The notes under the pieces are model-generated. The model saw nothing but the letters and a program-made list of their open reading frames with translations, was not told the DNA's origin and did not search any database. Made by a program: the position numbers and the translations under genes. A DNA stretch of 16,720 nt from Calothrix sp. HK-06. GTDB lineage: Bacteria; Cyanobacteriota; Cyanobacteriia; Cyanobacteriales; Nostocaceae. This document shows positions 1-15,608 of this stretch, piece by piece. The first letter of the stretch is position 1. Every line of letters starts with the position of its first letter. Location of the stretch: positions 1-16,720 of the forward strand of contig MRCD01000152.1 in the NCBI GenBank assembly GCA_001904745.1, written 5' to 3'.

Positions 1-98
1 TACATCACTATACGCACGTTCATGACGCTTGAAAAAACTTTGCGATTTACTGAATATAGTTTGTAGCGGTGCCTATGGATGGTGGGAAGATGCTTGGT
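1..98 (+). promoter_or_regulatory. candidate promoter / oriT region upstream of the relaxase gene
   Basis: In MobV plasmids oriT normally lies just upstream of the relaxase gene. The only structure seen is an imperfect inverted repeat (tacatcactata at 1-12 versus tatagtttgta at 54-64). The window is cut at position 1, so this cannot be judged properly. Confidence 0.2.
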
Positions 99-1826
99 AT
101 GACTAACTTTGCAGTTTGCCGAATCCAAAAGATAAAAAGCTGGGCATCGCTAATTAACAGTGCGATGCACGTAGCACGCGCGCATGAAATCGAGAACGCT
201 GATTTATCAATAAAAAATGTTTCCTTAATTGATGGCGCCGACGGTAAGGACATCAAGGAAATGTTTTTAGAAAAAATCGGCACCCAGAAGATACGCTCGA
301 ATGCAGTGCTGGGCATCGAAATGCTCTTGACCGCTAGTCCCCAATACTTCCGACCTGATAATCCAGACCAAGCTGGATTCTATATCCAAGAACGAGTAGA
401 CAATTTTGCTGCTGCTTGTACCGATTGGTTACTGACTCGTTATTACGGTAAAGTTGTCCAAGCTACAATGCACTTGGATGAATCGACTCCACATATCCAC
501 GCTTATATAGTACCCCTGGATAACAGAGGAAAACTTAATGCGAAGGGATTATTCCACGGGCGCCATAAACTCTCAGAATTATTAGATAGTTTTGCCCGCG
601 CGGTTGAACACCTGGGTATCAAACGCGGAGTCAAAGGAAGCAAAGCCAAACACCTTGATATAAAAAAATATTACGCTGCTGTAAACTGCAAGTCACTCCA
701 CATTAATTTAGATGATGTACTGCCGATACCAAACGATAATCAATCGGCTTTTGCATACCGTGAGTTAATCAAAGAAATTCTCCAACCCCAACTGGATATT
801 CTGAATCATCAAATCAATGACCGTGATTTACAACTACGGGAGAAAAAACATATCGAGCAGACTGCACAAGCTAGCGAGCGCGAAAGACAAAAGTTAGAAT
901 CGCGTGTGCAAAACTTAGCCTGGACTTTAGAATTATGGCAAGCGCAAGCTAACTTGTTACGCGACTTACCTTTAGAAGAGGTCGCTTACCATTTGGGGCT
1001 GCATTTAAATAGTAAAGGAATTTGGGAGGGTAATGGTTCTTCATTACGAATAGTCGGCGCCAAGTTTTACGATTACAGCGGCGCGCAATATGGTAGTGGT
1101 GGCGCTATTGATTTGGCGATGCATTTATTGCAGTGTAACTTTCGGCAAGCTGTTGCTTGGTTACATGAAATTTTTGGAGAGTCTGATTGCTTGCGTGCAG
1201 TTACCCATCATGCTAGAGAACAAACCCAAGAAATTATCTCTACCGAACGAGTACCAGAATTTGTGGCGCCTGACAGTGACCAAAGTCGATGGCATGATGT
1301 TCGTAATTATTTAGTGGACACTCGTAAGTTACCTGGCAATTTTATAGATAATCTACATGCTGCTGGGTTGATATATAGTGACGCGCGTGCAAATGCTGTT
1401 TTTGTAATGCGGTCGATGGAAAATGAAGTTACGGGCGCCTTTTTACGTGGAACATATGGATTTAACAACACTTTCTATGGTTTAGCCAAGGGTAGTAAAC
1501 GCAGTAAAGGTTGGTTTCATTTTACTGCTGGTGGACAAGGTGAGGATAAGATAATACGCACGGTTCTTACAAAATCCCCAATTGAAGCGTTATCAATCGC
1601 AGTGCTAGACCATTCCCTACTGGAGAAAACTATATATATAGCTATTGACAGTCCTCGGTGTATGCCTGTTGAGTTCCTAAGTTACTTTAAAAATATTCTT
1701 GCTGCTTATGATAACAATGCTTCGGGGGAAGAAATAGCAGGCGCCCTCTTAAAAGTTTTACCGCAAACTACTCGACTTAAACCTTCATGCCAAGATTGGA
1801 ATCAACAGTTAATTTTGATGAGGTAA
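99..1826 (+). CDS. MobV-family (Mob/Pre) relaxase with a C-terminal DUF3991/Toprim-like domain
   Basis: The ORF is open from GTG 69. ATG 99 gives MTNFAVCRIQKIKS, a typical Mob/Pre N-terminus. HLDESTPHIHAYIVP matches the HxDExxPHxH metal-binding relaxase motif. The middle is coiled-coil (QASERERQKLESRVQNL). The C-terminal half has GSGGAIDLAMHLL..AVAWL (DUF3991-like) and KSPIEALS .. AIDSP .. AYDNNASGEE (Toprim-like acidic motifs). Confidence 0.85.
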   Translation: MTNFAVCRIQKIKSWASLINSAMHVARAHEIENADLSIKNVSLIDGADGKDIKEMFLEKIGTQKIRSNAVLGIEMLLTASPQYFRPDNPDQAGFYIQERVDNFAAACTDWLLTRYYGKVVQATMHLDESTPHIHAYIVPLDNRGKLNAKGLFHGRHKLSELLDSFARAVEHLGIKRGVKGSKAKHLDIKKYYAAVNCKSLHINLDDVLPIPNDNQSAFAYRELIKEILQPQLDILNHQINDRDLQLREKKHIEQTAQASERERQKLESRVQNLAWTLELWQAQANLLRDLPLEEVAYHLGLHLNSKGIWEGNGSSLRIVGAKFYDYSGAQYGSGGAIDLAMHLLQCNFRQAVAWLHEIFGESDCLRAVTHHAREQTQEIISTERVPEFVAPDSDQSRWHDVRNYLVDTRKLPGNFIDNLHAAGLIYSDARANAVFVMRSMENEVTGAFLRGTYGFNNTFYGLAKGSKRSKGWFHFTAGGQGEDKIIRTVLTKSPIEALSIAVLDHSLLEKTIYIAIDSPRCMPVEFLSYFKNILAAYDNNASGEEIAGALLKVLPQTTRLKPSCQDWNQQLILMR

Positions 1827-1831
1827 GTTAT

Positions 1832-2072
1832 ATGAAAGCAACAGAGTGAGAAAAAATATCCAAACATTGCTCGCTGGATAGACGAACATACTGGTTGGAT
1901 TGAGATTGGTTATAACGTTGATAGTCCTCTTAATTCTTATATCCGCGCGATTGACTGTGGTGGGATGTTTTGAGAGGGAAAGGAGAGTTACGAAACTGTA
2001 GAGGAAGCACTGCAAGATTTAAATGCTGGACTGGAAGATGTTTTAGAAGAAATTTACGGCACCGATAATTAA
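1832..2072 (+). pseudogene. decayed small conserved hypothetical gene (frameshift plus TGG-to-TGA nonsense)
   Basis: ATG 1832 reads MKATE and then hits TGA at 1847. Shifting one base continues as EKKYPNIARWIDEHTGWIEIGYNVDSPLNSYIRAIDCGGMF, then TGA at 1971-1973, then EGKESYETVEEALQDLNAGLEDVLEEIYGTDN, with stop at 2070-2072. The GGMF-stop-EG context looks like GGM(F/I)WEG with Trp TGG mutated to TGA. Recognition of the family is from memory only. Confidence 0.4.
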
Positions 2073-2093
2073 TTTTATTGAGAGGAATTTAAT

Positions 2094-2465
2094 TTATATT
2101 GTGATTGAGCCGGGAGCATCCAAAAAGATTCCCAAATGGGCCTCGCATTTGACAAATTGCTTGCTGTTCCTCAATTACTAAAGGTTCTCTATATAATTTG
2201 GTGCCATGCTTTTTAGCATAATCTACAGCTTGCTCAAATTTCTCAACGCGCTCCTTTTGCTACTTGACCTGCATTTCCAGAACGCCTGCATTTCGTCCGT
2301 AAGATGGAAAAACATTTTAATCCCGTTGATGTCAATAGCTGCTCCTCGTACTTCGTTCTCTACGTAAAAGTATTTTACTGGTAAATCTAAAAGTTGACTG
2401 TACCATTGAGCAGCTGCAACAACATCATTAACAAAATAAAATATAGCTTGAACACTCTTAAACAT
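2094..2465 (-). pseudogene. VOC / glyoxalase-bleomycin-resistance family gene broken by frameshifts
   Basis: The N-terminal part (ORF 2223-2465) reads MFKSVQAIFYFVNDVVAAAQWYSQLLDLPVKYFYVENEVRGAAIDINGIKMFFHLTDE and is VOC-like. The reading frame then degenerates. A different frame downstream encodes VEKFEQAVDYAKKHGTKLYREPLVIEEQQAICQMRGPFGNLFG, with stop at 2094-2096, resembling the usual C-terminal DPFGN.FG end of VOC proteins. Confidence 0.5.
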
Positions 2466-2471
2466 ATTTAC

Positions 2472-3011
2472 TTATTCTATTTTTTGTAGTCGGTGCCTAA
2501 ATTCCAAATCTATAATATTTCTAGCTCCTATGAACAATACAATTTCACGCTCAGTTGGAGAAAGCCAAATTTGATATAACTGTTCATCATATTCTTCGGC
2601 TTCAAGTATTGTACCTACTTCCAAATATTTACTTCCAAAAAAATCAGAATTACCAAAATGGAACTCTCCTTCTATTTTTAGTTTTGCTTGCTTCAATCGT
2701 CCGCTCGTCTTGGCTTGGTAATAAGCTTGAGACAGTTCTTCTGAACTTGTAACCTTATAAACAAACTTCTCCATTAATGTATTACATTTTTCTTCTCCTA
2801 ACTTCATCATTAACTTTGATGGTGGTGGACTTTTATAATTTGCTATTTTCTCTTCGTTATCGCCCTTCGGGCAAACTACGTTAACAGCAATCTGAACTTT
2901 TAACTTTTGAATACAATACTTTACTGCTTCTTGTACACTGATATTATGAATCTCGGCTATTTGCTTAACATGAGCAATAAGCTCAAGCTTCCGAAAAGAA
3001 TTAGATTCCAT
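2472..3011 (-). CDS. hypothetical protein (179 aa)
   Basis: An intact ORF with an ATG start and a protein-like composition. The N-terminus (ELIAHVKQIAEIHNISVQEAVKYCIQKL) could be a small DNA-binding helix pair. No family was recognised. Confidence 0.5.
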   Translation of the reverse strand: MESNSFRKLELIAHVKQIAEIHNISVQEAVKYCIQKLKVQIAVNVVCPKGDNEEKIANYKSPPPSKLMMKLGEEKCNTLMEKFVYKVTSSEELSQAYYQAKTSGRLKQAKLKIEGEFHFGNSDFFGSKYLEVGTILEAEEYDEQLYQIWLSPTEREIVLFIGARNIIDLEFRHRLQKIE

Positions 3012-3371
3012 ATTTATTGATGAATGTAAACGTCAACAAAGTATTACTATCCGCTCGCTCCAGGCACCGATTAATCCTAATTATTTTTAATTAAACTCTA
3101 AACTACAGATAAATCAAAATTTTCTCCTTTTTCCTCAACTGCATACTCTAAAACTAATCTTTTTATTTCCTTAAAGTATTTTAGGTATGTTTCTACACTT
3201 TGGAAGATATAAAAGGTGAGAAGGTTGAAGTATATAGAGACACTACTGGTATTCCACCCACAGATTATGCGCGTATCATTGGACAGCTGTTAGTAAAAGA
3301 TTACAACTTAATTTAGAACAATAAGAAAGCCTACAACTTCTTCATATTAAATTAACTTTACATACTTGGGA

Positions 3372-4028
3372 TTACTTGAGCAACCCCAATTCCATGCCAG
3401 CGATTAATTGTTGGGCAAGAGGATAAAATATTTCTGCACGTTGTTTAGTCTTAGAACTAAACCCACCATTATCAACAATTTCGCATTTAATTTCAGTTTG
3501 TCCCGGTGACTGCTGCTTTATTACAATCCTACCAAGTTTACCAAGTTCTTTGTGCGTAAACACGTAATAAAAAGTAGTACCTTCTTGTTCCTTGCGAAAG
3601 CTAACTCCCGTGGGCATCTTCATGGGGGTTAAGATGACATTGCTTATTCCTACCATATCCATTACACCGTTCGGCCGTGCGATAAATAGTTCTACTTTAG
3701 GTGGTACAACCATAACAACCACAGCTTCGTTGCTAGGGTCATATTGTTGAAGAACGCTTGCAACTTCACGCTTAAATTCGACGCTTGTCATCCACAAGGC
3801 AACTGAACTATCAGCTTGGGGCACATAAAGAAAATCTTTCCGTGGCGCCTGTAAACCCAAAATGATACCTCTATCCCATTCGCTGTATTGTGCAAGAGCT
3901 ACCTGTAACGCAACACTTCCAAACACTTGTAAAAATGGTCGGTTTGGGTCGGTATGGATTTGCACTATGCCATTTTCAATCAAATGCTTGACCGAAAAAC
4001 TAATTGGGTCATTATGTGAATCTTTCAC
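3372..4028 (-). CDS. hypothetical protein (218 aa)
   Basis: An intact ORF with a GTG start at 4028, preceded by AGGTG 5 nt upstream. No recognisable motifs. Confidence 0.55.
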   Translation of the reverse strand: MKDSHNDPISFSVKHLIENGIVQIHTDPNRPFLQVFGSVALQVALAQYSEWDRGIILGLQAPRKDFLYVPQADSSVALWMTSVEFKREVASVLQQYDPSNEAVVVMVVPPKVELFIARPNGVMDMVGISNVILTPMKMPTGVSFRKEQEGTTFYYVFTHKELGKLGRIVIKQQSPGQTEIKCEIVDNGGFSSKTKQRAEIFYPLAQQLIAGMELGLLK

Positions 4029-4344
4029 GGATACACCTAGTTAACAAAGCTTCAATCATTGTACGGTAAGCGGCGCCAACTTTATGCTACAACCTGGCTC
4101 TCTATTAGCATCGGAACAAAAACCGGGTAATCGCAGTGTTACATGAATGTTACAGAAGTAACCAAGCGCTGTTCGCAGAGCGTGCCGTTAGGCATAACCC
4201 TTGATTTATAGCTCTTGAGATTGCTTAGTAATTTATAGAGTGAGCCACCACACCCCCAATCAAATCCTTATGCAATAAGACTTTTAAGCTTAACCCGGTA
4301 ATAGTTCCAATGATGCTTCTAAGCCTTCCCATGCGAATGTCGAA

Positions 4345-5298
4345 TCACCTATTAAGTGAGTTAACACAAGTATAAATTATTCTTTTAAATCCTTGTACTT
4401 TACGCTTAGGCATTGGCTTGTTAAATTCAGAGGTTAATATTGCTAATCCCTCATTCGATACCAAATAACTCGTATTATTGATTGGGCAATTTTGTGGTGT
4501 ACGTTTTTCAATCAACGCACTACAAATATGATGCCACGGAATGGCACCAAGTAAACTAGTACATATCACCATCAGCGAAGAAGGTAAGTCTACATAATTG
4601 CATAATATATCTTGTGATTTATGCAATATCCAGCAGTAAGACATTAGAGATATTAGTATATTTTCCTTACCAGGAGTAAATACATATTGTGAAGCAAGCT
4701 GGGCACTTGATGTCTGAATGTCAAGATATTGTTTGGTAATTTGACCAATTTGTTTTTTCAATTCATAATCAACTTCAATGTTGATAAAATCGTCGTTGTA
4801 CAAATTGTTTATTGCAATATCTACTAATCCAGTAATTATATCAGTTCGCTTGCGATGCTTCCTATAAATTTCAAATATTACTGTATCGAAACTAGCCTTT
4901 CTATCATTACATGTGATGGGGAGTAGTCTTGCTATATTGTACATCATTGGTTCGCGAAATGATAATTTCTGAGGGGTGTCTGATAAACCCACAAATGTAG
5001 GTTGAATCCCAAAATCCAATATTTCAAGAAATCGCTGCCTAAACAATGCCAATGATTGTTTGCGATTTGTGTGTTTTATTGATTTGTAAACGACGCTTTT
5101 TATGTTTGACCTATCAGGACAGTCGATGCTTACACCGGGAAAGTGGCGCCAGTAAGTTCGTTTATGCTCACCGCAAGCTAAACAAATTTCTCCGAAACAC
5201 GTGCCGCATACTGGTAGTTTATCGCAATACGTTTCATAATCGGCATCGGATGCCTTTATTATATCTCCGTCAGCTATACTGAATGCTGTTACACTCAT
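4345..5298 (-). CDS. hypothetical protein with an N-terminal Cys-rich zinc-ribbon (CoiA-N-like pattern)
   Basis: 317 aa. The N-terminus CDKLPVCGTCFGEICLACGEHKRTYWRHFPGVSIDC has CxxC..CxxC, then a basic-aromatic-His segment, then Cys. This is reminiscent of the zinc-finger N-terminus of CoiA-like proteins. The rest is unrecognised. Confidence 0.55.
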   Translation of the reverse strand: MSVTAFSIADGDIIKASDADYETYCDKLPVCGTCFGEICLACGEHKRTYWRHFPGVSIDCPDRSNIKSVVYKSIKHTNRKQSLALFRQRFLEILDFGIQPTFVGLSDTPQKLSFREPMMYNIARLLPITCNDRKASFDTVIFEIYRKHRKRTDIITGLVDIAINNLYNDDFINIEVDYELKKQIGQITKQYLDIQTSSAQLASQYVFTPGKENILISLMSYCWILHKSQDILCNYVDLPSSLMVICTSLLGAIPWHHICSALIEKRTPQNCPINNTSYLVSNEGLAILTSEFNKPMPKRKVQGFKRIIYTCVNSLNR

Positions 5299-5377
5299 GT
5301 TCGCTCAATTAATAATTATTTAATTACGAACATGCGTGCATTTGCGATGATATTGATTATAAATAATTAAGCGCATG

Positions 5378-5408
5378 AAGAGGAATGTACATAGGTTGTA
5401 CACCTCTT
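5378..5408 (-). terminator. candidate hairpin terminator / regulatory stem-loop after the 5420-5971 gene
   Basis: aagagg(aa)tgtaca-taggt-tgtaca-cctctt forms about 12 bp of stem with a 5-nt loop, starting 11 nt downstream of the stop codon at 5420-5422. It lacks a clean U-tract on the minus-strand transcript. Confidence 0.3.
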
Positions 5409-5419
5409 TACTCTGTGAG

Positions 5420-5971
5420 TTAATTCAAGCAATAGTTATTAAACCAAGTTATAATTCTGTTTCGATAGGCACTAGGGCTTCTGAATGATTCAAACATTCC
5501 ATTTTTTGAATAATTTTGTATATATTCTTGCATTTGCTTTTGATGCTCAAGTAATATTTGTTCTAATTGCTCAGGAGTGATTTCTGCTTTTTGGCTGGGG
5601 TTAGCTTTTGGGTATTGTTCCCGTAGAAATTTCATTTCTGTGTTGAATTCTGTTACGTATAAATCGCATGAATATTGATTGAGTAAAAGGATGTGTGATG
5701 GCTCAGTATCATCGGAGCCAAAGTCGATATTGTAATCTGGTTTTAATTTTTGGTATGCTTTTGCTAATTCTATGCTCATACCATCATTTTTTAAAAGGGG
5801 ATAGTACACATCGTAGTAGCTGAAGGTTTTGCTCCATCCACCGTCGCTCCAAGTTGCATTTGTTGCCTGGTAAAATATCCCAATCCATTGTTTCGTTTCT
5901 TCTACCACATTTATTGCTTCTTTTAGAAATTCAGGAGCGGGAATTGAGAGTTTGTAACTATGTTCAAACAT
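5420..5971 (-). CDS. hypothetical protein (183 aa from ATG 5971)
   Basis: The ORF track starts at 6061, but that would overlap the upstream gene by 62 nt. ATG at 5969-5971 (MFEHSYKLSIP) lies 28 nt after the upstream stop codon and is the more plausible start. No family was recognised. Confidence 0.5.
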   Translation of the reverse strand: MFEHSYKLSIPAPEFLKEAINVVEETKQWIGIFYQATNATWSDGGWSKTFSYYDVYYPLLKNDGMSIELAKAYQKLKPDYNIDFGSDDTEPSHILLLNQYSCDLYVTEFNTEMKFLREQYPKANPSQKAEITPEQLEQILLEHQKQMQEYIQNYSKNGMFESFRSPSAYRNRIITWFNNYCLN

Positions 5972-5999
5972 AATGTTTTTCTTGATAGTTAATAGTTTT

Positions 6000-6692
6000 T
6001 CAATTTGTTGGCGGCATAGGTTCAACTTTATACCGTTGCCGCATGATTCTGAATAACGCAATTCTTACCTCATAGGGGTTGCGATGTGAGTGAAATGTGA
6101 AACACATCCCGTTATTTAATGCCTTTATTTCATCCGATGTTAGTGGTACATGTTCTGCATAATTTGATACTCCTTGCCTATGTGCTATTTCTACCTGTTT
6201 ATTGATGCCAGGTTTTGTTTGTAGCAATTTTAAACATTCAATGGGTATTATTTCTACCATCCAGCTACCATCCGAAGTACTGAACCAGGCGGCACCTATT
6301 TTACATCTACCAAAATTGACGTTGAGGTTGGTAGCGTGCGACTGGGCAATGTTGATGCTATCGTATTCGCCTAATGTTTTTTGATGCCACACAGTATTAA
6401 AAACTTCCCATTTCGTCGGGTTTATTGTACTTTGTCGTACCATGTAACGAGCAGGTGTAGGCGCCAATAGTTGTGTGTCAACCCAAGTGTAGTAATCTTC
6501 CCCTATATACACAGCATGAATAAATGCGCGATTTTTTGATTCGTTTTTATGCAGAATCTCTACTTCGTACCCGTGCGCGAGGGCGACTGGTGTACCATCA
6601 CAAACCCAGGTGTTAGAGTTATCTATGTCTCCATCATATTCGGGGTAAGCGATATTGAGTTTCAAAGTTACCCATACTTTACTTTCACGCAT
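6000..6692 (-). CDS. hypothetical protein (230 aa)
   Basis: An intact ORF with ATG at 6690-6692, preceded by an extremely AT-rich leader. No family was recognised. Confidence 0.55.
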   Translation of the reverse strand: MRESKVWVTLKLNIAYPEYDGDIDNSNTWVCDGTPVALAHGYEVEILHKNESKNRAFIHAVYIGEDYYTWVDTQLLAPTPARYMVRQSTINPTKWEVFNTVWHQKTLGEYDSINIAQSHATNLNVNFGRCKIGAAWFSTSDGSWMVEIIPIECLKLLQTKPGINKQVEIAHRQGVSNYAEHVPLTSDEIKALNNGMCFTFHSHRNPYEVRIALFRIMRQRYKVEPMPPTN

Positions 6693-6967
6693 ATTTTTAT
6701 TAAAATTATTATTAATATAATTGTGTGAGCAATAACGATTTTATTAATATAAGTTATATTATATAAATCGATAGGGTCACATGCTATAACCGCAGCCAAT
6801 TCATTGATAAAATAAAATTCATGTTTACCTTCGTTATCCTCGATTACCAGCATATTGTCTACGTCGTAGTCGATTGAAGAATAACCATAAAGATAGATAA
6901 CTGGCGCCAGTTTAATATTTTTCAATAAGGGCGAAGGTTTGGGGACATTATGGTTAAAGCGCATCAT
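6668..6967 (-). CDS. possible small hypothetical protein (99 aa)
   Basis: The first ~70 aa look protein-like (APVIYLYGYSSIDYDVDNMLVIEDNEGKHEFYFINELAAVIACDPIDLY). The tail (AHTIILIIILIKICVKVKYG) is a translation of the AT-rich leader of the next gene, so the true 3' end is uncertain. Confidence 0.35.
   Translation of the reverse strand: MMRFNHNVPKPSPLLKNIKLAPVIYLYGYSSIDYDVDNMLVIEDNEGKHEFYFINELAAVIACDPIDLYNITYINKIVIAHTIILIIILIKICVKVKYG
6709..6752 (-). promoter_or_regulatory. AT-rich leader with a 12-nt direct repeat upstream of the 6000-6692 gene
   Basis: TTATTAATATAA occurs at 6709-6720 and 6741-6752, a 32-nt period, in an almost pure A/T stretch just upstream of ATG 6692. It is a possible promoter or operator, but low sequence complexity makes chance repetition likely. 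Confidence 0.2.
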
Positions 6968-7168
6968 CTTAATTACGTGTATACTTATGACGTATTTTAT
7001 ACTATAATTGTTTGATTATGATTAGCCACGTTAGTAAAATAAGTACCAGTTAAATTAGGTTACATAACTAGCGCTTATTGAATTACGTGATGGTACTGTC
7101 AAATAATGTTTTTTGTTAGCAATTTATCAATTGCTACCATACCATTGGATTCTGCTATTTTTGGTACC

Positions 7169-8047
7169 TTAAGCATAACAATTGAAAATATTTGTTTGAA
7201 TTGTCAATTCGTCGATATTTTGAGCATAGGCGATTGAAATTGCAGGGTCACGACTATTTTGATATTTACTACCCTTACTACCGCTAAGTTGACCACTTGC
7301 TGAGTCAGCACTGAATAGCAACCCAATAATTAAATTATCATCAAGCTGCCTTTTTGATAGTCCATAGCCATGTAGTTTTATATCGGGTCGCTGCATTTTT
7401 ATTGAAGTCAGTATCGAAAAGACTTCACTGTTTGGGCGCCGTTTTAACCCCCCAACCCCGACCCAGGCATTTTGCTGAATAGTATCACCGTATTGTGAAA
7501 GATGACAATTGTAGTCTGCTGCTGTTTTACCTTGTAGTATAGGTATTACATACGGGAGGTCACGTTCATCAAACTCCTCACAAACTTGGTCGTAGATATC
7601 CAGTAATTCATAATCACATTCCTCGTCAGCATACTCCATGAAACTCGCATGAAGCTCCACCATTGCTTCAAGATGAATATCTTTCAGGTGCTTTTTGATC
7701 TTATGGTATCGATGTATTGTTAAACGTTGATGTGCAGGGACATCGAGTTTTGTGAAATCAATTACCTCATCGAAGCATGGGTAGTCCTGGGTAGAGGCGC
7801 CGACGAGAGAACCACCCACTAACTTACTATTCAGGGCCCATTTATATATAGTACTTGCATATTTTTTTGTGGATGGGTAGGGTTTACCATTGAGTAGTCG
7901 CGTAAATCCGCAATCTAGCAACCAATCTTTGACGGGAAAGGTGGATTTACGATGTTCAATGCGATTGTAGGAAATGCATACTCTTAAAAAATCGCGTGTG
8001 CCCGATTTACCGCAGTTTGGCTGATTCCAGCCAGGAAAAAACAGCAT
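7169..8047 (-). CDS. DpdA-like TGT-fold protein (putative DNA-guanine / 7-deazaguanine transglycosylase)
   Basis: 292 aa. The ordered motifs match my memory of the DpdA / tRNA-guanine transglycosylase superfamily:
- MLFFPGWNQPN at the N-terminus;
- VCISYNRIEHRKSTF;
- WLLDCGFTRL, in place of the usual LDSGGF substrate-Asp motif;
- VIPILQGKTAADY, the (P)V(L/V)QG motif;
- VGVGGLKRRP;
- IKLHGYGLS, the LHGFG motif;
- FSADSAS, the SADS(M)AW motif.
ATG at 8045-8047. No HMM or structure search was possible. Confidence 0.6.
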   Translation of the reverse strand: MLFFPGWNQPNCGKSGTRDFLRVCISYNRIEHRKSTFPVKDWLLDCGFTRLLNGKPYPSTKKYASTIYKWALNSKLVGGSLVGASTQDYPCFDEVIDFTKLDVPAHQRLTIHRYHKIKKHLKDIHLEAMVELHASFMEYADEECDYELLDIYDQVCEEFDERDLPYVIPILQGKTAADYNCHLSQYGDTIQQNAWVGVGGLKRRPNSEVFSILTSIKMQRPDIKLHGYGLSKRQLDDNLIIGLLFSADSASGQLSGSKGSKYQNSRDPAISIAYAQNIDELTIQTNIFNCYA

Positions 8048-8741
8048 TATGTGTTTGGAGATAAGATTTAATGGCGTTTGCGATAAACTCTGCCAACTTC
8101 ACGGGTACGGCATTACCAATCATTTCTTCTAAATTAGTGTTTGTTTCATTACTGAAATCAAAGTTTGACGGGAATGTTTGAATCGCCGCACGTTCAAACG
8201 TAGTCAGTGGTCGTAGTTTTGAATTAATAGGCGCCGTATCACTTGGATGACCCTTATAACCCGGTGGTATCGGTCGATTCGTTCCCCGAATTGTGGGCGA
8301 TGGTTCCGAAATACTGAATACTGCTCGCCTTTTATAACTGCGTGCGTGTCTATAATAATGTTCGATGTTGAGACTATCGCCAAAATAATCACGCACCGTC
8401 ATTGGTTTGAATGACAATCCTGCGTTTAAATAGGGTAGTAACTCATGGTCGGCACCATTGAGTACACCCACACAGATGTAACGTTGCCTGTTTTGGGGTA
8501 CTCCACAATATGCGGCATTGAATACTTTTTCAGTTAATCCATATTTATTACGTTTTAATATTTCGATAACTTGTTTATATTTTTTGCTTTTTTGATAGCG
8601 TTCAACATTTTCCATTACGAATATTGATGGTTGAATGTATTCAATTAATTCAGCAAACCTGATACTCAAATCTCCGCGACCACTATCTTCATTACGGGAG
8701 CCAGCAGAGCTAAAATCTTGGCAAGGTGAATTATGTTTATT
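8007..8741 (-). pseudogene. 5'-truncated DNA (cytosine-5) methyltransferase remnant (motifs IV-X only)
   Basis: The frame is open from the stop at 8742-8744 and reads NKHNSPCQDFSSAGSRNEDSGRGDLSIRFAELIEYIQPSIFVMENV..GVPQNRQR..PSPTIRG..QTFP..GNAVPV. It is collinear with residues ~80-320 of the intact paralog at 9059-10045, roughly 60% identical by eye. Motifs I-III, including the FxGxG SAM-binding loop, are missing. Homology starts at the PCQ codons (~8721-8729). The start in the ORF track is only a TTG (an internal Leu of DLSIRF). Confidence 0.8.
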
Positions 8742-9058
8742 CTACAACGTAAAATCCGCCTCAAAAAGTAATTATAATTATACCTTCTACAAAGTAAGCC
8801 ATTGAAAAACCAATTTTATATTTTTTTAATTATTGAAGAAAATTCTAGGGAGGTCGGCGCCTGGAGCATTAGAGTTTTAGGCTTGACCTTCACTCTCAAT
8901 ACCATGCTTGTTCTTTAACGCACGGCTTGTTAAAGTTATTAGATTCAACAACCGCCTCGTATTTCTCATTAACAAGACTCCTTTTTTGTTAACTTTGCTT
9001 TCTGGGCATCGCAAGCTCCGTTCCTATATGGAACACAGTGAAAGACATTAACTTATTA

Positions 9059-10045
9059 CTAAATTTGTAAGCTAGGTACTAACTGTGTTGATTGCATTTG
9101 TTTAACATTCAACTCAATGTTATCTTTCATATATTGGAGCAAGCATCTTGCAAAAAACTCAGCTAACTTAACAGGTACAGCATTAGCAATCATTTGTTCT
9201 AAATCAGTTTTCGATTGGCTTTTTTCATCAAAATCAAAACTTTTGGGAAATGTTTGTATGTAGCTTCGCTCAATAGTAGTTAATGGACGTAAATCAGGAG
9301 TGAGAGGCGCCGCATCACCAGGATGTAATTTATAAGTTTTAGGAATTGGTCGGTTTACCCCTCTGATTGTAGGACTAGGTTCATCAATACTAAATATACC
9401 TCGTCTTTGATAAGTTCTAGGATGCCTGTAGTAATATTCAAGACCCAGCCTGTTTCCTAAATAATGCCTGATTGTAGTTGGTTCTTTGGATAAATTATAG
9501 TTTATGTATGGAATTAATGCGTTATCAATACCGTTTAATTCTCCTATACAAAAATATCTTTTTCTACTTTGAGGAACTCCGCAAAATGCTGCATTAATTA
9601 TTTTTTCTGTCAACCCATAACCACTATTTTTAAATATATTGATAACTTGGTTATATTTCTGGCTTTTTTGAAACCTATCTACATTTTCCATTACAAACCA
9701 TTTAGGTTTGACCGAAGCAATTATTTTAGCAAACGTGATACTCAAATCACCTCTTCCTAAATTCTCATTGCGCTTCCCGACACTTGAGAAGTCTTGACAA
9801 GGTGGACCAGAAATAATAATATCAGGTTTGAAACTGGTAAAATCATTATAATCGTTTAAATTGCCTAAGTCACAATTATAAATTTCATGCAAGAAGTTCT
9901 TTCTATAAATTTGTATTGCTGGCTCCCAGTTATCAAAAGCTGCTACTATTTTAAAACCTACATTTTGAAACCCTAGAGATAGTCCACCACAGCCAGCGAA
10001 TAAATCAATAGCTCTTAAACTTATCTCATGTGTTTTATTGCTCAT
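9059..10045 (-). CDS. DNA (cytosine-5) methyltransferase, intact
   Basis: 328 aa with the full set of C5-MTase motifs:
- I: IDLFAGCGGLSLGF
- IV: GPPCQDFS
- VI: ENV
- VIII: QSRKR
- TRD with PSPTIRG
- IX: QTFP
- X: ANAVPV. Confidence 0.9.
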   Translation of the reverse strand: MSNKTHEISLRAIDLFAGCGGLSLGFQNVGFKIVAAFDNWEPAIQIYRKNFLHEIYNCDLGNLNDYNDFTSFKPDIIISGPPCQDFSSVGKRNENLGRGDLSITFAKIIASVKPKWFVMENVDRFQKSQKYNQVINIFKNSGYGLTEKIINAAFCGVPQSRKRYFCIGELNGIDNALIPYINYNLSKEPTTIRHYLGNRLGLEYYYRHPRTYQRRGIFSIDEPSPTIRGVNRPIPKTYKLHPGDAAPLTPDLRPLTTIERSYIQTFPKSFDFDEKSQSKTDLEQMIANAVPVKLAEFFARCLLQYMKDNIELNVKQMQSTQLVPSLQI

Positions 10046-10165
10046 TTTAGTCTATAAACCTTAAAGATATTTTGTTGCCTAAATAATACCATAAAATGTT
10101 CGGATAAAACTGGGATTTTACAGAATAAAATTATCCGTATTAAATTTTAAATTTTGATGATTAAG

Positions 10166-11479
10166 CTAATCTTTGTAATTAGAAAATTTACCAATACTAG
10201 GGTCAAATACTACCTTACAAGTATCTGTTACGCCATTTCTGTTTTTAGCGACTATTATCTCCATAATTCTTTTATCACTAGTATTTGAGTTGTAATATTC
10301 ATCTCGATAAAGTAGTAGTCCTAAATCCATATCCTGTTCAATATCGCCAGAATCTTTAATATCAGCCATAGAAGGACGTTTATTACTTTGACCTTCTACA
10401 CCACGATTGATTTGAGCAAGAACTACAAATGGGACATTAAATATTTTAGCAATATCTTTACAAGCCCCACAATATTTACCAATGGCTTGCGCTCTATTTC
10501 CTGCTGCTCTATCCCCAAGCTTTTGAATATAGTCTAATACTACTAATCCTAATTCTCCTTTTTCAGATTCTACTCTACGAAGTGCAGAACGAATTTTAGT
10601 GGGGGTTAGCTCACCTGCTGGAGTATCATCAATTATAATCGGTAATTCAGATAGATTAGATAAACCTTTTACTAAAGAATCATATTCCTCCTCATAAATT
10701 AGATTGTGCATCAGCCTTTGGGAATCAATACCTGTGTGCATAGAGAGGAACCTTTTAGTTAGTTGTTCCTCAGACATTTCTGCACTAAAAAACAATACTG
10801 GCTTATGGATACTGCTTGCAATATAATTAGCCAGATAACAGCCAAACCAGCTTTTACCCATAGATGGTCTAGCAGCAACTACAATTAAGTCTTGTTTAAT
10901 TAAGCCACCAATTAGAGTATCTAAGCCTGTTAAACCTGTAGGGTAAGCAGGAGACGAACCCTGCTCTATCCTATTCAATAAATTAGCTAAACACTCATTA
11001 ATGGGTTTAGGTTGGAATTTAGTTTTATTGTTAGTTGTAATATTAAATAGTTTTTGTTCAGATTGCTCAAATATTTGTTCTAATTCCGTACTAGTATCGC
11101 ATCCTAAATCTACTATTGTATGTCCTACTGATACTAATTGACGGCGTTGGTATTTATCCAGTACTAGGGCAGCGTAATGGTCTATATTTACTGCTGATAC
11201 AGCCCGGTTAAGAAGTTGAGATAATTTAGTGTCACCTCCTACTTTTTCTAAAAGTTTATGGTCAGCCAGCCAAGTAGAAACAGTCATTAAATCTGTTTGT
11301 TTATTATTTTGATATAGCAGTAAAGCTGCTTTATAAATTTGTTGATGACCATGAGTACAAAAAGATTCTACAGGAAGTATGTCAGCAAGTATACCCATAG
11401 CATTGGGGTCAAGTAAAATACATCCCAATATGGCTTCTTCAGCTTCGATATTTCCTAAAAACTGATTACTCTTCGACAT
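10166..11479 (-). CDS. dnaB: replicative DNA helicase DnaB
   Basis: 437 aa. The DnaB N-terminal signature is NIEAEEAILGCILLDPNAM. Walker A is ARPSMGKSWF and Walker B is LVVLDYIQ. The RecA-like C-terminus has LAQINRGVEGQSNKRPSMADIKDSGDIEQDMDL. There is no intein. The start overlaps the upstream gene by 14 nt. Confidence 0.9.
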   Translation of the reverse strand: MSKSNQFLGNIEAEEAILGCILLDPNAMGILADILPVESFCTHGHQQIYKAALLLYQNNKQTDLMTVSTWLADHKLLEKVGGDTKLSQLLNRAVSAVNIDHYAALVLDKYQRRQLVSVGHTIVDLGCDTSTELEQIFEQSEQKLFNITTNNKTKFQPKPINECLANLLNRIEQGSSPAYPTGLTGLDTLIGGLIKQDLIVVAARPSMGKSWFGCYLANYIASSIHKPVLFFSAEMSEEQLTKRFLSMHTGIDSQRLMHNLIYEEEYDSLVKGLSNLSELPIIIDDTPAGELTPTKIRSALRRVESEKGELGLVVLDYIQKLGDRAAGNRAQAIGKYCGACKDIAKIFNVPFVVLAQINRGVEGQSNKRPSMADIKDSGDIEQDMDLGLLLYRDEYYNSNTSDKRIMEIIVAKNRNGVTDTCKVVFDPSIGKFSNYKD

Positions 11480-12350
11480 TTGTTTTGTTAAATAAGTTGC
11501 TAAGTTGTTTGAGTTTATCCTGTGAAATTAATTTCTTTTGGTTATCTTGTATAACCACTGAAGATTGATTTGATGTTAATGGTGTCGATTGTTCACGAAT
11601 GTTAGGCTGTGCTTCGTCACGTATCATTGATAGTAAACAAGCAGCAGGATTTTCTACATTAGTTTTACTACTATACTCTTGAAAAGCTTCAATTGATAAC
11701 TTAACTTTATGATATTCGCGGCTGACTATTTCCTGCTTTAGTTTTGAATTAATCTTAATTCCCATTTCGTTGATTAATTGAAATATATCTAAGTTTTCTG
11801 ATTGAACATTCTTCTCATGAATTTCTCTGGTTATATAAATATCAGTTGTAGAGGAACTTGTATTAGATTGATTTACTCTTATAGGGACTATTTTTTTATC
11901 AGAGTGAACAGGAACTACCTCTCGTAATTGTGAGCGTAAACGTTCGCACTCGTCTCTAAGTTCGTAAATTTCTGCTACATGACCTCTAAGTTTTTCATTT
12001 TGATGTTTAAGTTCCCTAACCTCTGTTTCTAGTTCTCTAATTCTTTGCTTGGCAACTTCATGTAAAGTTTTAAGGCTATGGGGTCTTGGGTCTTTTTGTT
12101 CTAACGTATTTAATGTAGACTCCTTTTCATGTTGAATTTCGTGTATATATACTTTAATTTCATCCCATTTATAGAGATAAGAAATAGAACATCCTGCAAC
12201 ATTAGCAATCGAAGCAAATGTCAATGGTTGTTTTTGAGCAAGTATTTCTTGAATTGCTTTTAATACTTGCTCTTTTTTTTGTTCCTTTTTTTGGGCTTGA
12301 GTGCGACGCAGAACTTCAGCTTGTTTATCGCGATTATGATTTTTAACCAT
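11466..12350 (-). CDS. HTH plus coiled-coil protein, TnpC/DUF6262-like accessory protein of Tn554-type recombinase modules
   Basis: 294 aa. The basic N-terminus is followed by a probable HTH (PLTFASIANVAGCSISYLYKW) and then a strong heptad coiled coil (IRELETEVRELKHQNEKLRGHVAEIYELRDECERLRSQL). It overlaps both neighbours (8 nt and 14 nt). The family assignment is from memory of proteins found next to paired Tn554-like integrases. Confidence 0.5.
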   Translation of the reverse strand: MVKNHNRDKQAEVLRRTQAQKKEQKKEQVLKAIQEILAQKQPLTFASIANVAGCSISYLYKWDEIKVYIHEIQHEKESTLNTLEQKDPRPHSLKTLHEVAKQRIRELETEVRELKHQNEKLRGHVAEIYELRDECERLRSQLREVVPVHSDKKIVPIRVNQSNTSSSTTDIYITREIHEKNVQSENLDIFQLINEMGIKINSKLKQEIVSREYHKVKLSIEAFQEYSSKTNVENPAACLLSMIRDEAQPNIREQSTPLTSNQSSVVIQDNQKKLISQDKLKQLSNLFNKTNVEE

Positions 12351-14169
12351 TTGTTAAATCTCTTAATTGTGGTAGCCATTTATCCATTGCCTCGATAGTG
12401 GCTCTGGCTTCTTCTTTCGCTAGTTCAGCACCTGCTTGTCCTGCTTCTTCTAGTCTTTGATGTTCTCCTTTATACTGGCGTTCGTAGAGAGGTAATTTAG
12501 CTGTGCTAGGACGAAAACTAGAACAGCCATAGCATTTAGGGTAAAGATTAATAGGACAGGGCGTTTTGGGTTCAAGAACACAGTGTCCATAAACTACTAA
12601 GCGTGGGGCTATTTCGAGGTCAAGTTCGTGTGCTTTAGAATTTTTAATTAGGCTTTCTGGTAAAGTTTGCCAAGGAAGGAACTTGTTATCAGGGTTCATT
12701 AACAGTTCCTGAAAAGGCAAGTCTACTGCTGCTACCTGCTCCCTAGTAGGGGGTGCATAGTTTTGAAAAGTAGTACTACTTATTGTATGGTCAGCATAAA
12801 GTTTAGCAGCTTCAATACCGTATTTTACACGTATTTCTTGCAATCTGTTGTGGCGAGTAATTTTACCTGTAAAATGAGGTCTTTGCCCGTTGGTATCACG
12901 GATGTTTTCTTTTTCTATAAGTAAACGAATAATGCATACCATTGTATTTTCCTTGACATTTACACGGGGTGGAATTGGTAAGGGTTTCATGTTAGTAAAG
13001 GCTGGGTAAGAATCATTTTTTACATTTATAAAATGACAAAACAGATATGGATACTCTAACTCCAATGTTTGTCTTATCCATTGCTGTTGTTCTTCAATTA
13101 TTTTTCTAATTTCACGAGTGGCAGGTATTTGATGCCATCGCTTAGTTTTATGTTGATAAAATTTAATATACCATTTTTGATTTTCTTCCACTAAGCAATC
13201 AAATAACAATTGGCAAATATCTCCTGGACGAGCAGCAGTATACTCCTGTATTAAGTAATGACAAGCAATAAATGCAGGAATTTTAGATAGATTATTTTGA
13301 ATGGATGTGCGCGTTACTTCATCCAACCAGTCTGGGTCATTTTTAATTTCTTTGAGGTAATCACGCCGACGAATTAAGTATGATGAATTAAGCCCTAACC
13401 ATTCAAAAAAACATTTTAGATAGCTTAGTTTGTGATTGATGGTTTTATTGTCGCAATCCTTATAGTTATCTAAAAAACTTAGCAAGGCTTCGCGGCTAAT
13501 ATCGGTAGCTTCTTTGATGTTGAAATTTTCTACAATTTGTCCAAACTGCTTTAAATTTGTTAGAGAGTGTCTAATTCCTGACGGAGCAGAATAAGCTCTC
13601 GATTTGAGTAAGTATTGTATATAGTTTTTAACCTCTAATTTATACCATTGTGGTAAAACTTTTTGAAAATTAATTGATTGTGGATAAGGATTATCGTAGA
13701 AATGTCTTAAATCCCAAATATCATCATCTAAATAGAAAGGCGGCAATTTATTTTTTGTTTTGCCATCTATCCAACTTCGACAAAACGTTGAATTAAGTTC
13801 AAAGCTAGTACCGCAAAAGTGACAATGACACTTTTCTCGTGTATGTTTTGTTGTATAAATCCACCCTTTTTGTCCATTATATCCTACTTCATTACAAACA
13901 GGATTAGGACATTCTATATCAGGACGATAGTTGCAAGTATAGGTAGGAACTGAAGAAGTTAGAGATACCCACTTTTCACAATTACTACACATAAATCTAA
14001 TCTTACATTTTGAAGTGTCTTTAAAATAAGTTTTCTTAAGATTACTTTTCTGACAGTTTGGGCAAATAAATTCGCCTTTATAATCCTTCTCCCAATCCAC
14101 CTTTAATTGTCCGTGTAAAGTAGGATGAATAGAGATAGTAGAAGATTGTTGTTTAGTCATTAAATTCAC
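12343..14169 (-). CDS. tyrosine recombinase-like protein 3, with N-terminal zinc ribbons and a C-terminal Cys cluster
   Basis: 608 aa. The GTG start at 14167-14169 overlaps the upstream TGA (GTGA); an alternative ATG is at 14160. The N-terminus has CPNCQ..CSNCEKW and CPNPVC..CHCHFCG. The recombinase-like core has AARPGDICQL (Arg), TRHNRLQ (a degenerate HxxR box) and ADHTISSTTFQNY (His..Tyr). The C-terminus has CVLEPKTPCPINLYPKCYGC. Confidence 0.65.
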   Translation of the reverse strand: MNLMTKQQSSTISIHPTLHGQLKVDWEKDYKGEFICPNCQKSNLKKTYFKDTSKCKIRFMCSNCEKWVSLTSSVPTYTCNYRPDIECPNPVCNEVGYNGQKGWIYTTKHTREKCHCHFCGTSFELNSTFCRSWIDGKTKNKLPPFYLDDDIWDLRHFYDNPYPQSINFQKVLPQWYKLEVKNYIQYLLKSRAYSAPSGIRHSLTNLKQFGQIVENFNIKEATDISREALLSFLDNYKDCDNKTINHKLSYLKCFFEWLGLNSSYLIRRRDYLKEIKNDPDWLDEVTRTSIQNNLSKIPAFIACHYLIQEYTAARPGDICQLLFDCLVEENQKWYIKFYQHKTKRWHQIPATREIRKIIEEQQQWIRQTLELEYPYLFCHFINVKNDSYPAFTNMKPLPIPPRVNVKENTMVCIIRLLIEKENIRDTNGQRPHFTGKITRHNRLQEIRVKYGIEAAKLYADHTISSTTFQNYAPPTREQVAAVDLPFQELLMNPDNKFLPWQTLPESLIKNSKAHELDLEIAPRLVVYGHCVLEPKTPCPINLYPKCYGCSSFRPSTAKLPLYERQYKGEHQRLEEAGQAGAELAKEEARATIEAMDKWLPQLRDLTNG

Positions 14170-15608
14170 TTCCTTTTCAAATTTTCTAGTTGTTCTAGTC
14201 CTTTTAATCGAGCTTTTATTAAATCGCCGAGACGATTAATTTCAGTAACTCTTCTTTCTTGCATTAGATTTTCTGCTTGTTGTAAATCTTTTTGTAAGCT
14301 TGTATAATCAGCTTCTAACTTAGTCTTATCTTCTAAAGTTACTCGATGGTGGTCACAACTTAAACAGGCATAGCGAAGATTGCAATCACCTAACATGCTT
14401 GGTCGATGGCATTCTCCCAAAGGAGTACTAACTTTGAGAATCTCAGCTAATTTCTCGTATCTACGTTTTCTAGGTATAAAGCTAGTAACCTGACCATACA
14501 TATCGACATAACCTTTAGAATTAGCCTCTTTCTCTAATCGTTCCAAAGAACGTTTTCGATAATGTGGCAACATATCCAAAGAGCCATGACCCAAAACCGC
14601 AGCAATATATTCATCTTCTGCTTCGCAGTAAGCCATGATGCTAGCTTTAGTACGGCGAAAATGATGGCTAGTAAGATGAAACTTATTACCATGCTTATCT
14701 TTAAGGTTTACTTCTTCTCTAAAATCTTGTAACCAAAGTCTAATTGTATCAAAGCGTAAAGTTTCAGGTTTATAAACTGGCTCTACCTGAAATCTTTTAC
14801 CATTATAGCCATGATGTGAAACATCAACTTTACAAAATAATTTATCAAATTTAGAATTAGCACCAAATTGAACCTCCAAAAATTTCTGTTGCTCTTGAAC
14901 TAATTCAGCTACCAAATAATTAATTTGATAAAATCGCCAGTGCTTGCGTTTCTCTACCCAACGCAACAAAAACCACTTATCACCTTCCTGTTTTAAACAT
15001 TGACGAGGCATCCTAAGCATTTCGCCTATACGACATCCCAAAACAAGCTGTAGTCGAAATAGCCTTTCCAATGGTGCTGGAAAAAGGTCGAATTGCTGGT
15101 AAATTTGATAAAGAACTTCTTCTGGAATGGTCTCAATTTTCGGAGCTTGTTTTTTTATTTTAAATGGAGTGTATATTAATTTTAGCCATCCCTCTTCTGC
15201 CCATAGTTTTAGTGCGTAGACTATATCATTTTGACGTTGTTTTGTAGAACTTTGAGTTATAAATTCTCGCAATATAGTATCAGTTAAATCTTCTGGTTTA
15301 CTATACCCTTTAGACACTAAAAACTTGTCTAGCTGTTTTAAAACGCCATTTCTATGTCTAACAGTATCCAGCGAATGTTTTGCTCTAACACTTGCTAGAA
15401 CTGTTAATTTTGTTAACAATTTTAGCCAGGATAATGAAAAAGTATCAAAATAAATATTTTTAATACGACTAAAATCAGATTCATCTTTGGTATAACCTAT
15501 TGCTTCAGTTGTCCAAACATCTTTCTCTAATAAAGTGATATCTAACAATTTTTGACCAAATTCCGAATTACTTATCCTTGACTGTAATATTTCCAAAGGT
15601 AACATCAT
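14166..15608 (-). CDS. tyrosine recombinase 2 (Tn554 TnpB-like position), with a C-terminal Cys cluster and coiled coil
   Basis: 480 aa. Catalytic-type residues are GCRIGEMLRM (Arg), LTSHHFRRTKAS (HxxR) and VLGHGSLDMLPHY (His..Tyr). The C-terminus has CHRPSMLGDCNLRYACLSCDHH followed by a coiled coil. The ATG at 15606-15608 overlaps the upstream TAA by 1 nt. Confidence 0.8.
   Translation of the reverse strand: MMLPLEILQSRISNSEFGQKLLDITLLEKDVWTTEAIGYTKDESDFSRIKNIYFDTFSLSWLKLLTKLTVLASVRAKHSLDTVRHRNGVLKQLDKFLVSKGYSKPEDLTDTILREFITQSSTKQRQNDIVYALKLWAEEGWLKLIYTPFKIKKQAPKIETIPEEVLYQIYQQFDLFPAPLERLFRLQLVLGCRIGEMLRMPRQCLKQEGDKWFLLRWVEKRKHWRFYQINYLVAELVQEQQKFLEVQFGANSKFDKLFCKVDVSHHGYNGKRFQVEPVYKPETLRFDTIRLWLQDFREEVNLKDKHGNKFHLTSHHFRRTKASIMAYCEAEDEYIAAVLGHGSLDMLPHYRKRSLERLEKEANSKGYVDMYGQVTSFIPRKRRYEKLAEILKVSTPLGECHRPSMLGDCNLRYACLSCDHHRVTLEDKTKLEADYTSLQKDLQQAENLMQERRVTEINRLGDLIKARLKGLEQLENLKRK

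Follow-up and report, generated by a model that had tools for sequence, protein, structure and literature searches.

A Tn554/GInt-type element probably inserted at the PCQ codons of a C5 DNA methyltransferase gene in Calothrix sp. HK-06

Positions 1 to 16,720 (forward strand) of contig MRCD01000152.1 of Calothrix sp. HK-06 (assembly GCA_001904745.1), a stretch of 16,720 nucleotides (nt) called here the window, contain a C5 DNA methyltransferase gene that is broken at its catalytic PCQ motif and lies beside a set of recombinase genes. The explanation that we favor, with a probability of about 0.85, is that a Tn554/GInt-type element inserted into this resident gene at the PCQ codons, and that a subgroup of related elements uses the DNA encoding P-C-Q as attachment site. 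Insertion had already been proposed in the original prediction, which was made from the letters of the window, and it gained support, since the break point and the conserved right terminus of the element match to the nucleotide and intact orthologues of the gene are free of it. In four different methyltransferase genes, that of the window and three others, the cut falls between the second and third base of the Pro codon just before the catalytic Cys. Coordinates of all features are listed in Table 1.

The break point and the ends of the element

On the minus strand, the frame of the resident gene runs from a TAG at 8742-8744 through N-K-H-N-S-P-C-Q-D-F-S-S and onward to the stop at 8007-8009, in agreement with the proposed break at the PCQ motif behind NKHN and a stop codon. 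The start of homology, which had been placed at SPCQDFSS, could be refined: the Ser and Pro of SPCQ are encoded by TCA CC, part of a 6-nt spacer (TTCACC) that moves with the element, and the resident gene proper resumes at 8724. Against the PF00145 profile the remnant matches positions 70-323 of 324 (E 3.6e-42) and the cargo gene positions 2-320. As the match of the remnant begins only at 70, motifs I-III are absent, as had been claimed.

The intact paralog expected beyond the junction is a methyltransferase of 328 amino acids (aa), encoded at 9059-10045, and from PCQ onward it is identical to the remnant at 139 of 226 residues (62%, E 2e-108) with no large gaps. This value matches the earlier estimate of about 60% and the conclusion that no recent tandem duplication took place. 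The presence of two homologous methyltransferase sequences on the same strand, about 330 bp apart, could still be taken as the outcome of a local duplication, or of recombination between paralogs, after which one copy decayed. We give this almost no weight, because the amino acid identity is only 62%, the intact copy lies inside an element that is found elsewhere without this resident gene, and the remnant is 98% identical to an orthologue with an unrelated 5' neighborhood. Homologous recombination between the paralogs was also rejected, as a single crossover would give two full-length chimeras and not a truncation.

Orthologues of the resident gene define the break independently. Plasmid1 of Calothrix NIES-4105 (L001) carries an intact 317-aa methyltransferase with 98.2% nucleotide identity to positions 7931-8728 and 99% amino acid identity over 239 aa. 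The orthologue on a plasmid of Calothrix PCC 7716 (L002; 80% nucleotide identity, with similarity stopping at 8726) is full-length yet frameshifted, and a third, intact one was found on two Logan contigs (L048 and L049), L048 showing 83% nucleotide identity with similarity to the window beginning at 8726. For all three, similarity is thus lost at 8726-8728, within the Pro codon that comes right before the catalytic Cys. The methyltransferase and the DpdA-like gene form a conserved pair in NIES-4105, PCC 7716, L048 and L049, none of which contains the element. Related replicons with an operon of this kind had been named beforehand as something to look for. L048 and L049 have the same upstream neighbor as the orthologue and the DpdA-like gene downstream. 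Compared with NIES-4105, the window is syntenic downstream of the methyltransferase, and nothing in the window corresponds to the 5' third of the orthologue or to the genes upstream of it. The comparison of orthologues therefore gives a resident order of neighbor, methyltransferase and DpdA-like gene, from which the window departs at one sharp point. The same truncation in related genomes without the element, which had been named beforehand as evidence for a deletion or other rearrangement, was seen in no relative examined.

Two observations concern the state of the operon in the Calothrix plasmids. In NIES-4105 an insertion sequence transposase (6130-7653 of L001) splits the DpdA-like gene, with codons 1-39 at 8001-8117 and codons 37-292 at 4984-5751. 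In PCC 7716 (8875-9776 of L002) the methyltransferase matches in two frames, suggesting that the reading frame shifts near codon 195, and the annotation has two hypothetical proteins in its place.

The ends of the element were located by comparison of related loci, about 30 of which were returned when cyanobacterial genomes and metagenomes, the source genome not among them, were scanned with the first recombinase. Conservation begins at TTATAACAAC, about 103 nt ahead of the first recombinase gene, in all of these loci (25+ left ends), with unrelated flanks; in the source contig this left terminus lies 103 nt beyond position 16720. Two metagenome contigs start exactly at its first T. A right terminal region, composed of an A-rich stretch, TTACTTTGTGGAAG, about 38 nt and TGTAGAATCAATATAA, is common to the window and seven loci (L006, L008, L009, L011, L023, L027 and L046). 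In the window it contains two 13-nt direct repeats (8740-8752 and 8785-8797), one inverted copy of which (TTCTACAATTTAG) is present at the left end. What had been described as a non-coding junction of about 320 bp is consequently made up of this terminal region (8731-8842) and about 216 nt of further DNA. Its non-coding character was borne out, as 8725-9058 holds no open reading frame (ORF) with a family match and no Rfam match at gathering or E-value threshold, and the 330-bp junction has no match in PLSDB. No terminators were found in it, and promoter-like sites occur only at chance level, for which reason we make no claim on outward transcription.

The spacer next to the right terminus varies between loci. 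The hexamer equals the six nucleotides to the left of the element in L011 (GACTGA), L027 (CCCAGT) and L046 (GGCTTA) and differs from the left-flank hexamer in L006, L008 and L009; in the window, TTCACC faces ??CACC. The metagenome contig L023 spans the first T of the left terminus through the right terminus and ends with the hexamer attached, hence the hexamer behaves as part of the repeated unit. In Tn554 and in the SE elements (strand-biased circularizing integrative elements) the spacer is a copy of sequence that flanked the previous site on the left (PMC12486829 for the Tn554 family, PMC10214605 for SEs). By analogy, TTCACC would be a footprint carried from the previous insertion site and, since it reads in frame as (G)GT TCA CC, Gly-Ser-Pro, that site was probably a methyltransferase motif IV too. 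The only hint of an excised circle is that contigs break at the termini or 4 nt outside them.

The source contig is 16,827 nt long and extends 107 nt beyond the window, so that it ends 4 nt (CACC) after the element does. An identical element with the same starting nucleotide is present on a Logan contig (L003, run SRR4407853), the first bases of which are CACC/TTATAAC (here and below a slash marks the element boundary). These four nucleotides agree with the sequence of NIES-4105 at this point, AGC CCA CC/A (...CCCACC). The 5' third of the gene, expected just past 16720, was sought with a hybrid query joining the N-terminus of the orthologue to the read-through of the left end, and among 5.8 billion proteins only four unrelated methyltransferases were retrieved. 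A query with the upstream neighbor of the orthologue yielded two more empty sites (L048 and L049), the source strain not being among the matches, and the Logan contigs of SRR4407853 (L003 and L019) are fragmentary, breaking off either at this region or within it. The attL of the source strain is predicted to read ...GGTAGCCCACC/TTATAACAACAAC. A circular or tandem junction would read ACATAATTCACC/TTATAACAAC, and the empty site is predicted to be CCCACCTTGCCAAGATTTT.

Table 1. Features of the resident methyltransferase locus and of the element in the window
Feature	Positions	Strand	Evidence
DpdA-like gene, overlapping the 3' end of the resident methyltransferase; resident operon, not element	7169..8047	-	PF23859 E 5.4e-10, above cutoff
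Resident C5 DNA methyltransferase, 3' remnant (two-thirds of gene)	8007..8724	-	Pro codon third base (before catalytic Cys) to stop 8007-8009
6-nt spacer TTCACC between right terminus and resident gene	8725..8730	-	right-end alignment, 6 variable nt after ...ATAA
Conserved right terminal region: A-rich stretch, TTACTTTGTAGAAG, 37 nt, TGTAGAATAAACATAA	8731..8842 (112 nt)	-	architecture common to seven loci
In-frame TAG closing the remnant frame upstream, inside the element terminus	8742..8744	-	direct sequence reading
Non-coding DNA downstream of cargo methyltransferase, without counterpart in relatives examined	8843..9058	-	no ORF family, Rfam or plasmid match
Cargo C5 DNA methyltransferase, intact, 328 aa	9059..10045	-	PF00145 E 6.9e-65; PADLOC MTase_II PDLC03270 E 4.7e-142
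DnaB-type replicative helicase, conserved fifth gene of the element family	10166..11479	-	PF03796, PF00772; 64-89% identity in family members
TnpC/GinD-like protein, DUF6262 N-terminal domain, 294 aa	11466..12350	-	PF19776 E 3.7e-12; aligns to full-length B. cereus TnpC
Third tyrosine-recombinase-fold protein, large, 608 aa, N-terminal Cys-rich zinc-ribbon	12343..14169	-	weak PF00589, PF02899; TnpB core-binding region E 1e-6
Second tyrosine recombinase, 480 aa, TnpB-like catalytic domain, Cys-rich C-terminus	14166..15608	-	PF00589; E 8e-13 to B. cereus TnpB
First tyrosine recombinase, TnpA-like, 370 aa	15608..16720	-	PF00589 E 1.5e-31; 34% to B. cereus 'Tn554-related transposase A'

Insertions in other methyltransferase genes

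Related elements cut other methyltransferase genes at the same point. In Mojavia pulchra, Nostoc sp. WHI and one Nostoc metagenome-assembled genome (L004, L041 and L017), all inserted at one common site downstream of lpxB, the left terminus adjoins an 85-aa N-terminal fragment of a different C5 methyltransferase that ends in ...DIDVVICGSP (GGC TCA CC/), and Nostoc sp. T09 (L005) reads GGG AGT CC/ at the same lpxB-proximal site. In the Microcoleus-type event (L042, L043 and L044; GCA_014696155.1, recombinase named Microcoleus sp. ZQ-A2) the fragment ends in ...IDLVFGGPP (CCT CC/), next to rplL and tsf. The fragment in Nostoc sp. FACHB-888 (L045) ends in ...FDILCGGFP (TTC CC/), behind an unrelated DnaB and a gene that reads as ASCH-like from its sequence. 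All three types of N-terminal fragment pass the PF00145 cutoff. Those of the L004 type and of L045 end at profile position 70, where the remnant of the window begins; the match of the L042 fragment stops at 60, ahead of an insertion in the protein, and its sequence still ends in GGPP. The target fragments are at most 60% identical to each other, and their genomic contexts differ. Elements of this methyltransferase-targeting subgroup share 73-74% identity with the window in the second protein and 70-79% in the DUF6262 protein, compared with 57-67% and 51-59%, respectively, for members outside methyltransferase genes. The hosts of the subgroup are mostly Nostocales, with Microcoleus too, and members of the wider family were found in Xenococcaceae, Crocosphaera and Okeania. 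Two plasmid relatives (L020 and L021), with about 72% identity in the first recombinase, were set aside as members of another subgroup, which lacks DnaB; neither of the two lies in a methyltransferase gene.

These fragments bear on the possibility that the 5' third of the resident gene was lost by an adjacent deletion or other rearrangement once the element had arrived in the methyltransferase gene or beside it, in which case the other end of the element would have no matching 5' fragment at its side. Such an event has a slim chance of being the right explanation. It would be compatible with a left flank of the source element read for only 4 nt, and rearrangements around these elements appear to be common, given the relatives without visible right ends and C-terminal halves. 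However, the remnant starts exactly at the conserved terminus and its 6-nt spacer, the four known nucleotides of the left flank fit the expected CCCACC, and the N-terminal fragments at four other loci end at the complementary position, which repeated deletions would not produce.

In most events the cargo methyltransferase resembles the gene that was destroyed. PDLC03270 is the best PADLOC model for the cargo gene of the window (E 4.7e-142), for the resident remnant and for its orthologue (E 1.6e-128), and PDLC03326 is that of the 425-aa cargo carried by the Mojavia-type and Microcoleus-type elements, as well as of the target in each case. Identity within cargo-target pairs is 61.5% and 63.8%, compared with about 36% across pairs. 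Cargo and destroyed gene thus belong to the same subfamily in three of the four events; in the FACHB-888 element only the last 70 codons of a cargo gene are left, and the target is of another subfamily. The cargo gene follows DnaB in one lineage and lies between the DUF6262 gene and DnaB in the other, different positions that point to two separate acquisitions.

Several points weigh against the explanation that we favor. Its support comes from sequence comparison, excision, circular forms and methyltransferase specificities not having been observed, and the window element's own left flank is known for 4 nt only. No single locus contains both halves of a target gene. In L004, L005, L041, L042 (with its 10-kb extension L051) and L045 (with its 10-kb extension L050) there is no right terminus or C-terminal methyltransferase half within the 1.6-14 kb, depending on the locus, that were available downstream of DnaB; neither right termini nor DNA encoding CQxFS were found downstream of the relatives, the two extensions included, and these elements must therefore be either large or rearranged. 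Outside the subgroup, the majority of family members occupy sites other than methyltransferase genes. The resemblance of cargo to target is drawn from two independent acquisitions of a cargo gene. Finally, the first five resident nucleotides past the spacer (T TGC) carry two synonymous differences from all three orthologues: the window reads T TGC at 8721-8724, whereas the orthologues have A or C first, followed by TGT, in a gene otherwise 98% identical to that of NIES-4105. These differences may have been left by heteroduplex repair at the crossover, or they could be due to chance.

Some observations on the relatives stand apart from these arguments. The four Nostocaceae genomes with the lpxB-proximal insertion (L004, L005, L017 and L041, about 9640-9900) share one site and carry different DNA after DnaB. 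The element-adjacent hexamer is CTCACC in three of these loci versus GAGTCC in Nostoc T09, four adjacent base changes that keep Ser-Pro. A complete type I restriction-modification (R-M) system (hsdR, hsdS and hsdM) follows DnaB of the Microcoleus-type element (11652-19113 of L051), and a cas1-cas2 pair with a Cmr-type CRISPR-Cas module follows DnaB of the FACHB-888 element (1-13958 of L050); each may be cargo or flank. Directly after DnaB, on the opposite strand, L041 (17949-19184) and L045 (8321-9586) encode a protein of 411-421 aa with no Pfam match, although their left flanks differ; nearly all of the 96 members of its 90% cluster come from Nostoc. A metagenome contig of 4068 nt (L029) contains an apparently internally deleted element, in which genes two to four resemble those of the methyltransferase-targeting subgroup (70-82%) and the left flank contains no methyltransferase.

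Genes of the element and its relation to known systems

The genes between 9059 and 16720 all lie on the minus strand and are ordered, in the direction of transcription, as three recombinase-fold genes, the DUF6262 gene, DnaB and the methyltransferase, which holds a PCQ site of its own (CCA CCT TGT CAA). Alignment revealed a complete R-HxxR-H-Y set in the first and second proteins (recA and recB), and a degenerate active site in the third (recC), where R, KxxR and Y are present and both His are missing. In TnpB alignments the second protein accounts for the catalytic domain and a Cys-rich tail and the third for the core-binding region. DUF6262 is labelled TnpC in PMC11947258. The homologies of the window proteins to TnpA, TnpB and TnpC confirm that the recombinase-bearing element is related to Tn554, as had been supposed. 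The zinc-ribbon module of the third protein (…ISIHPTLHGQLKVDW…FICPNC…) is present in a single copy in the window (12343-14169). It is repeated in tandem about five times in an 815-aa protein of a Nostoc plasmid relative (L020, 14569-17013) and several times in Xenococcaceae members (L006, 9260-9920), so that the copy number differs between subgroups with different targets.

In architecture the element is like the GInts described by Bardaji et al. (2017; PMC5385486), which have a four-gene module at the 5' end encoding two catalytic recombinases, a degenerate third and a small TnpC-like fourth protein, variable cargo behind this module, a 3' end that is short, AT-rich and poorly conserved yet includes conserved stretches, site-specific and often genic insertion, and short imperfect junction repeats. 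GInts excise as a circle, for which all four genes are needed. Similarly, the element of the window has a ginABCD-type module of three PF00589-related ORFs and a DUF6262 gene, overlapping and co-oriented, 103 nt from the left terminus; recA and recB are complete and recC is incomplete. GinC misses the first Arg and recC both His, and the match to GInt in this respect is therefore one in kind only. Cargo in the family is variable (none, a methyltransferase, a type I R-M system or CRISPR-Cas), and the terminal region of about 110 nt is conserved. The comparison with the GInts of Pseudomonas concerns architecture. Differences are also evident: the hosts are cyanobacteria, a phylum outside those listed by Bardaji et al. 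(2017; PMC5385486), DnaB is a conserved fifth gene, and the target consists of internal catalytic-motif codons, with destruction of the gene, in contrast to the GInts, which are usually at gene ends.

With the Tn554 family the element shares homologues of TnpA (34% identity), TnpB (E 8e-13 and 1e-6) and TnpC (PF19776), and orientation-specific insertion into a conserved gene. Tn554 elements duplicate no target sequence and bring 6-7 nt of the donor left flank to the right end (PMC12486829), and the variable hexamer of the element may have a like origin. In one staphylococcal Tn554 relative, 'Tn552-II', a target-gene-like (tgl) cargo homologous to the target and with a copy of the att site was described, and its authors suggest a rescue function (Wan et al. 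2025, PMC12486829). Whereas Tn554 has the three genes tnpABC, the element has four core genes, two of which encode TnpB-like paralogs. It further differs in a far longer TnpC-like protein and in the presence of DnaB, and its target is a methyltransferase motif across several gene subfamilies rather than one locus such as radC or a yolD-like gene. The SEs also resemble it in having four core genes, a small and a large recombinase and the TnpC-like Srap, and they have been reported only from Gammaproteobacteria (PMC10214605). The order intA-tfp-intB-srap is not reproduced, since Tfp of SEs lacks RHRY and in the window it is the third protein that is degenerate, the second having all catalytic residues. 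RIT (recombinase in trio) elements encode three catalytic recombinases of about 300-400 aa, have long terminal inverted repeats and lack a TnpC-like gene (PMC10214605). In the window the recombinases measure 370, 480 and 608 aa, there is a DUF6262 gene and the end repeats are only 8-13 nt long, so the element does not fit that type.

The interruption elements of heterocyst formers (nifD, fdxN, hupL) use a single recombinase, either a tyrosine recombinase of XisA/XisC type or a serine recombinase of XisF type, and are restricted to these organisms. An element of this kind, excised in certain cells to restore the methyltransferase, would be compatible with insertion at the PCQ codons. The hosts of the subgroup are mostly Nostocales, and excision at the hexamer would yield an in-frame gene again, with GSPPCQ or GSSPCQ at the join. 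Programmed excision is nonetheless very improbable, because the element encodes a four-gene Tn554-like module with recombinases of Tn554/GInt type, not XisA, XisC or XisF, because the host range extends to Microcoleus for the subgroup and to Xenococcaceae, Crocosphaera and Okeania for the wider family, and because a methyltransferase on the element itself would make restoration unnecessary.

Inteins and group I introns with homing endonucleases also target the DNA of invariant active-site motifs, and what these and the element of the window have in common is a target chosen because it is conserved across many genes and hosts. In contrast to them, the element would use tyrosine recombination without splicing, and it carries a substitute gene instead of restoring the target. 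No published description of this target specificity was found in the literature searched, the coverage of which was incomplete.

Proposed mechanism and its implications

The observed part of the mechanism comprises insertion at CC/N, conserved termini with short repeats, a variable hexamer and proteins of Tn554 type. In the window, insertion would have occurred between the second and third base of the Pro codon (resident ...CCA CC/T TGC CAA...), and the element would extend on the minus strand from the left terminus beyond the window to 8731. The recombinases and the TnpC-like protein may recognize DNA that is constrained by the invariant motif (N TGY CAR...). A circular form would integrate, its junction carrying the donor hexamer, and DnaB may help to replicate it. 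As the insertion splits motifs I-III from the catalytic Cys, the resident enzyme is inactivated; judging from the shared subfamily, the cargo enzyme plausibly replaces the lost methylation and may keep it up once the resident gene has been destroyed.

A broader proposal is that PCQ DNA is the universal attachment site of a cyanobacterial GInt/Tn554-like clade, and that cargo of the victims' own subfamily, acquired repeatedly, brings about a 'methylase swap' by which the element is tolerated and becomes hard to lose. We regard this as tentative, with odds of roughly one in three. If true, the clade could enter any replicon, plasmid or prophage with a C5 methyltransferase gene, and methylation of the host, hence protection from the cognate restriction enzyme, would survive insertion. 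Methyltransferase genes, which are common on plasmids and prophages, also emerge from the four insertions as landing pads for elements without transfer genes of their own. The repeated pairing of a destroyed gene with cargo of the same subfamily goes beyond the one report of 'target-gene-like' cargo, in a staphylococcal relative of Tn554, and suggests a general way to neutralize the cost of genic insertion. Target choice by Tn554, GInt and SE elements is poorly understood, the known targets being single loci, and four methyltransferase genes hit at one nucleotide constitute a natural series of target variants from which to learn what the recombinases read. For annotation, truncated dcm-like genes beside cyanobacterial recombinase trios become readable as att junctions.

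The remainder of the window belongs to the resident replicon. Downstream of the DpdA-like gene there is a run of seven ORFs (2223-6967, minus strand), of which six have no Pfam match and six no PADLOC match; NCBIfam, applied to four of them only, gave no match either. Within this run, the segment 4830-6010 is kept at 80% in NIES-4105. At the start of the window (69-1826, plus strand) a MobV-type relaxase is encoded, fused to DUF3991 and Toprim domains, from which it follows that the resident replicon is probably a mobilizable plasmid, as are both matching Calothrix plasmids.

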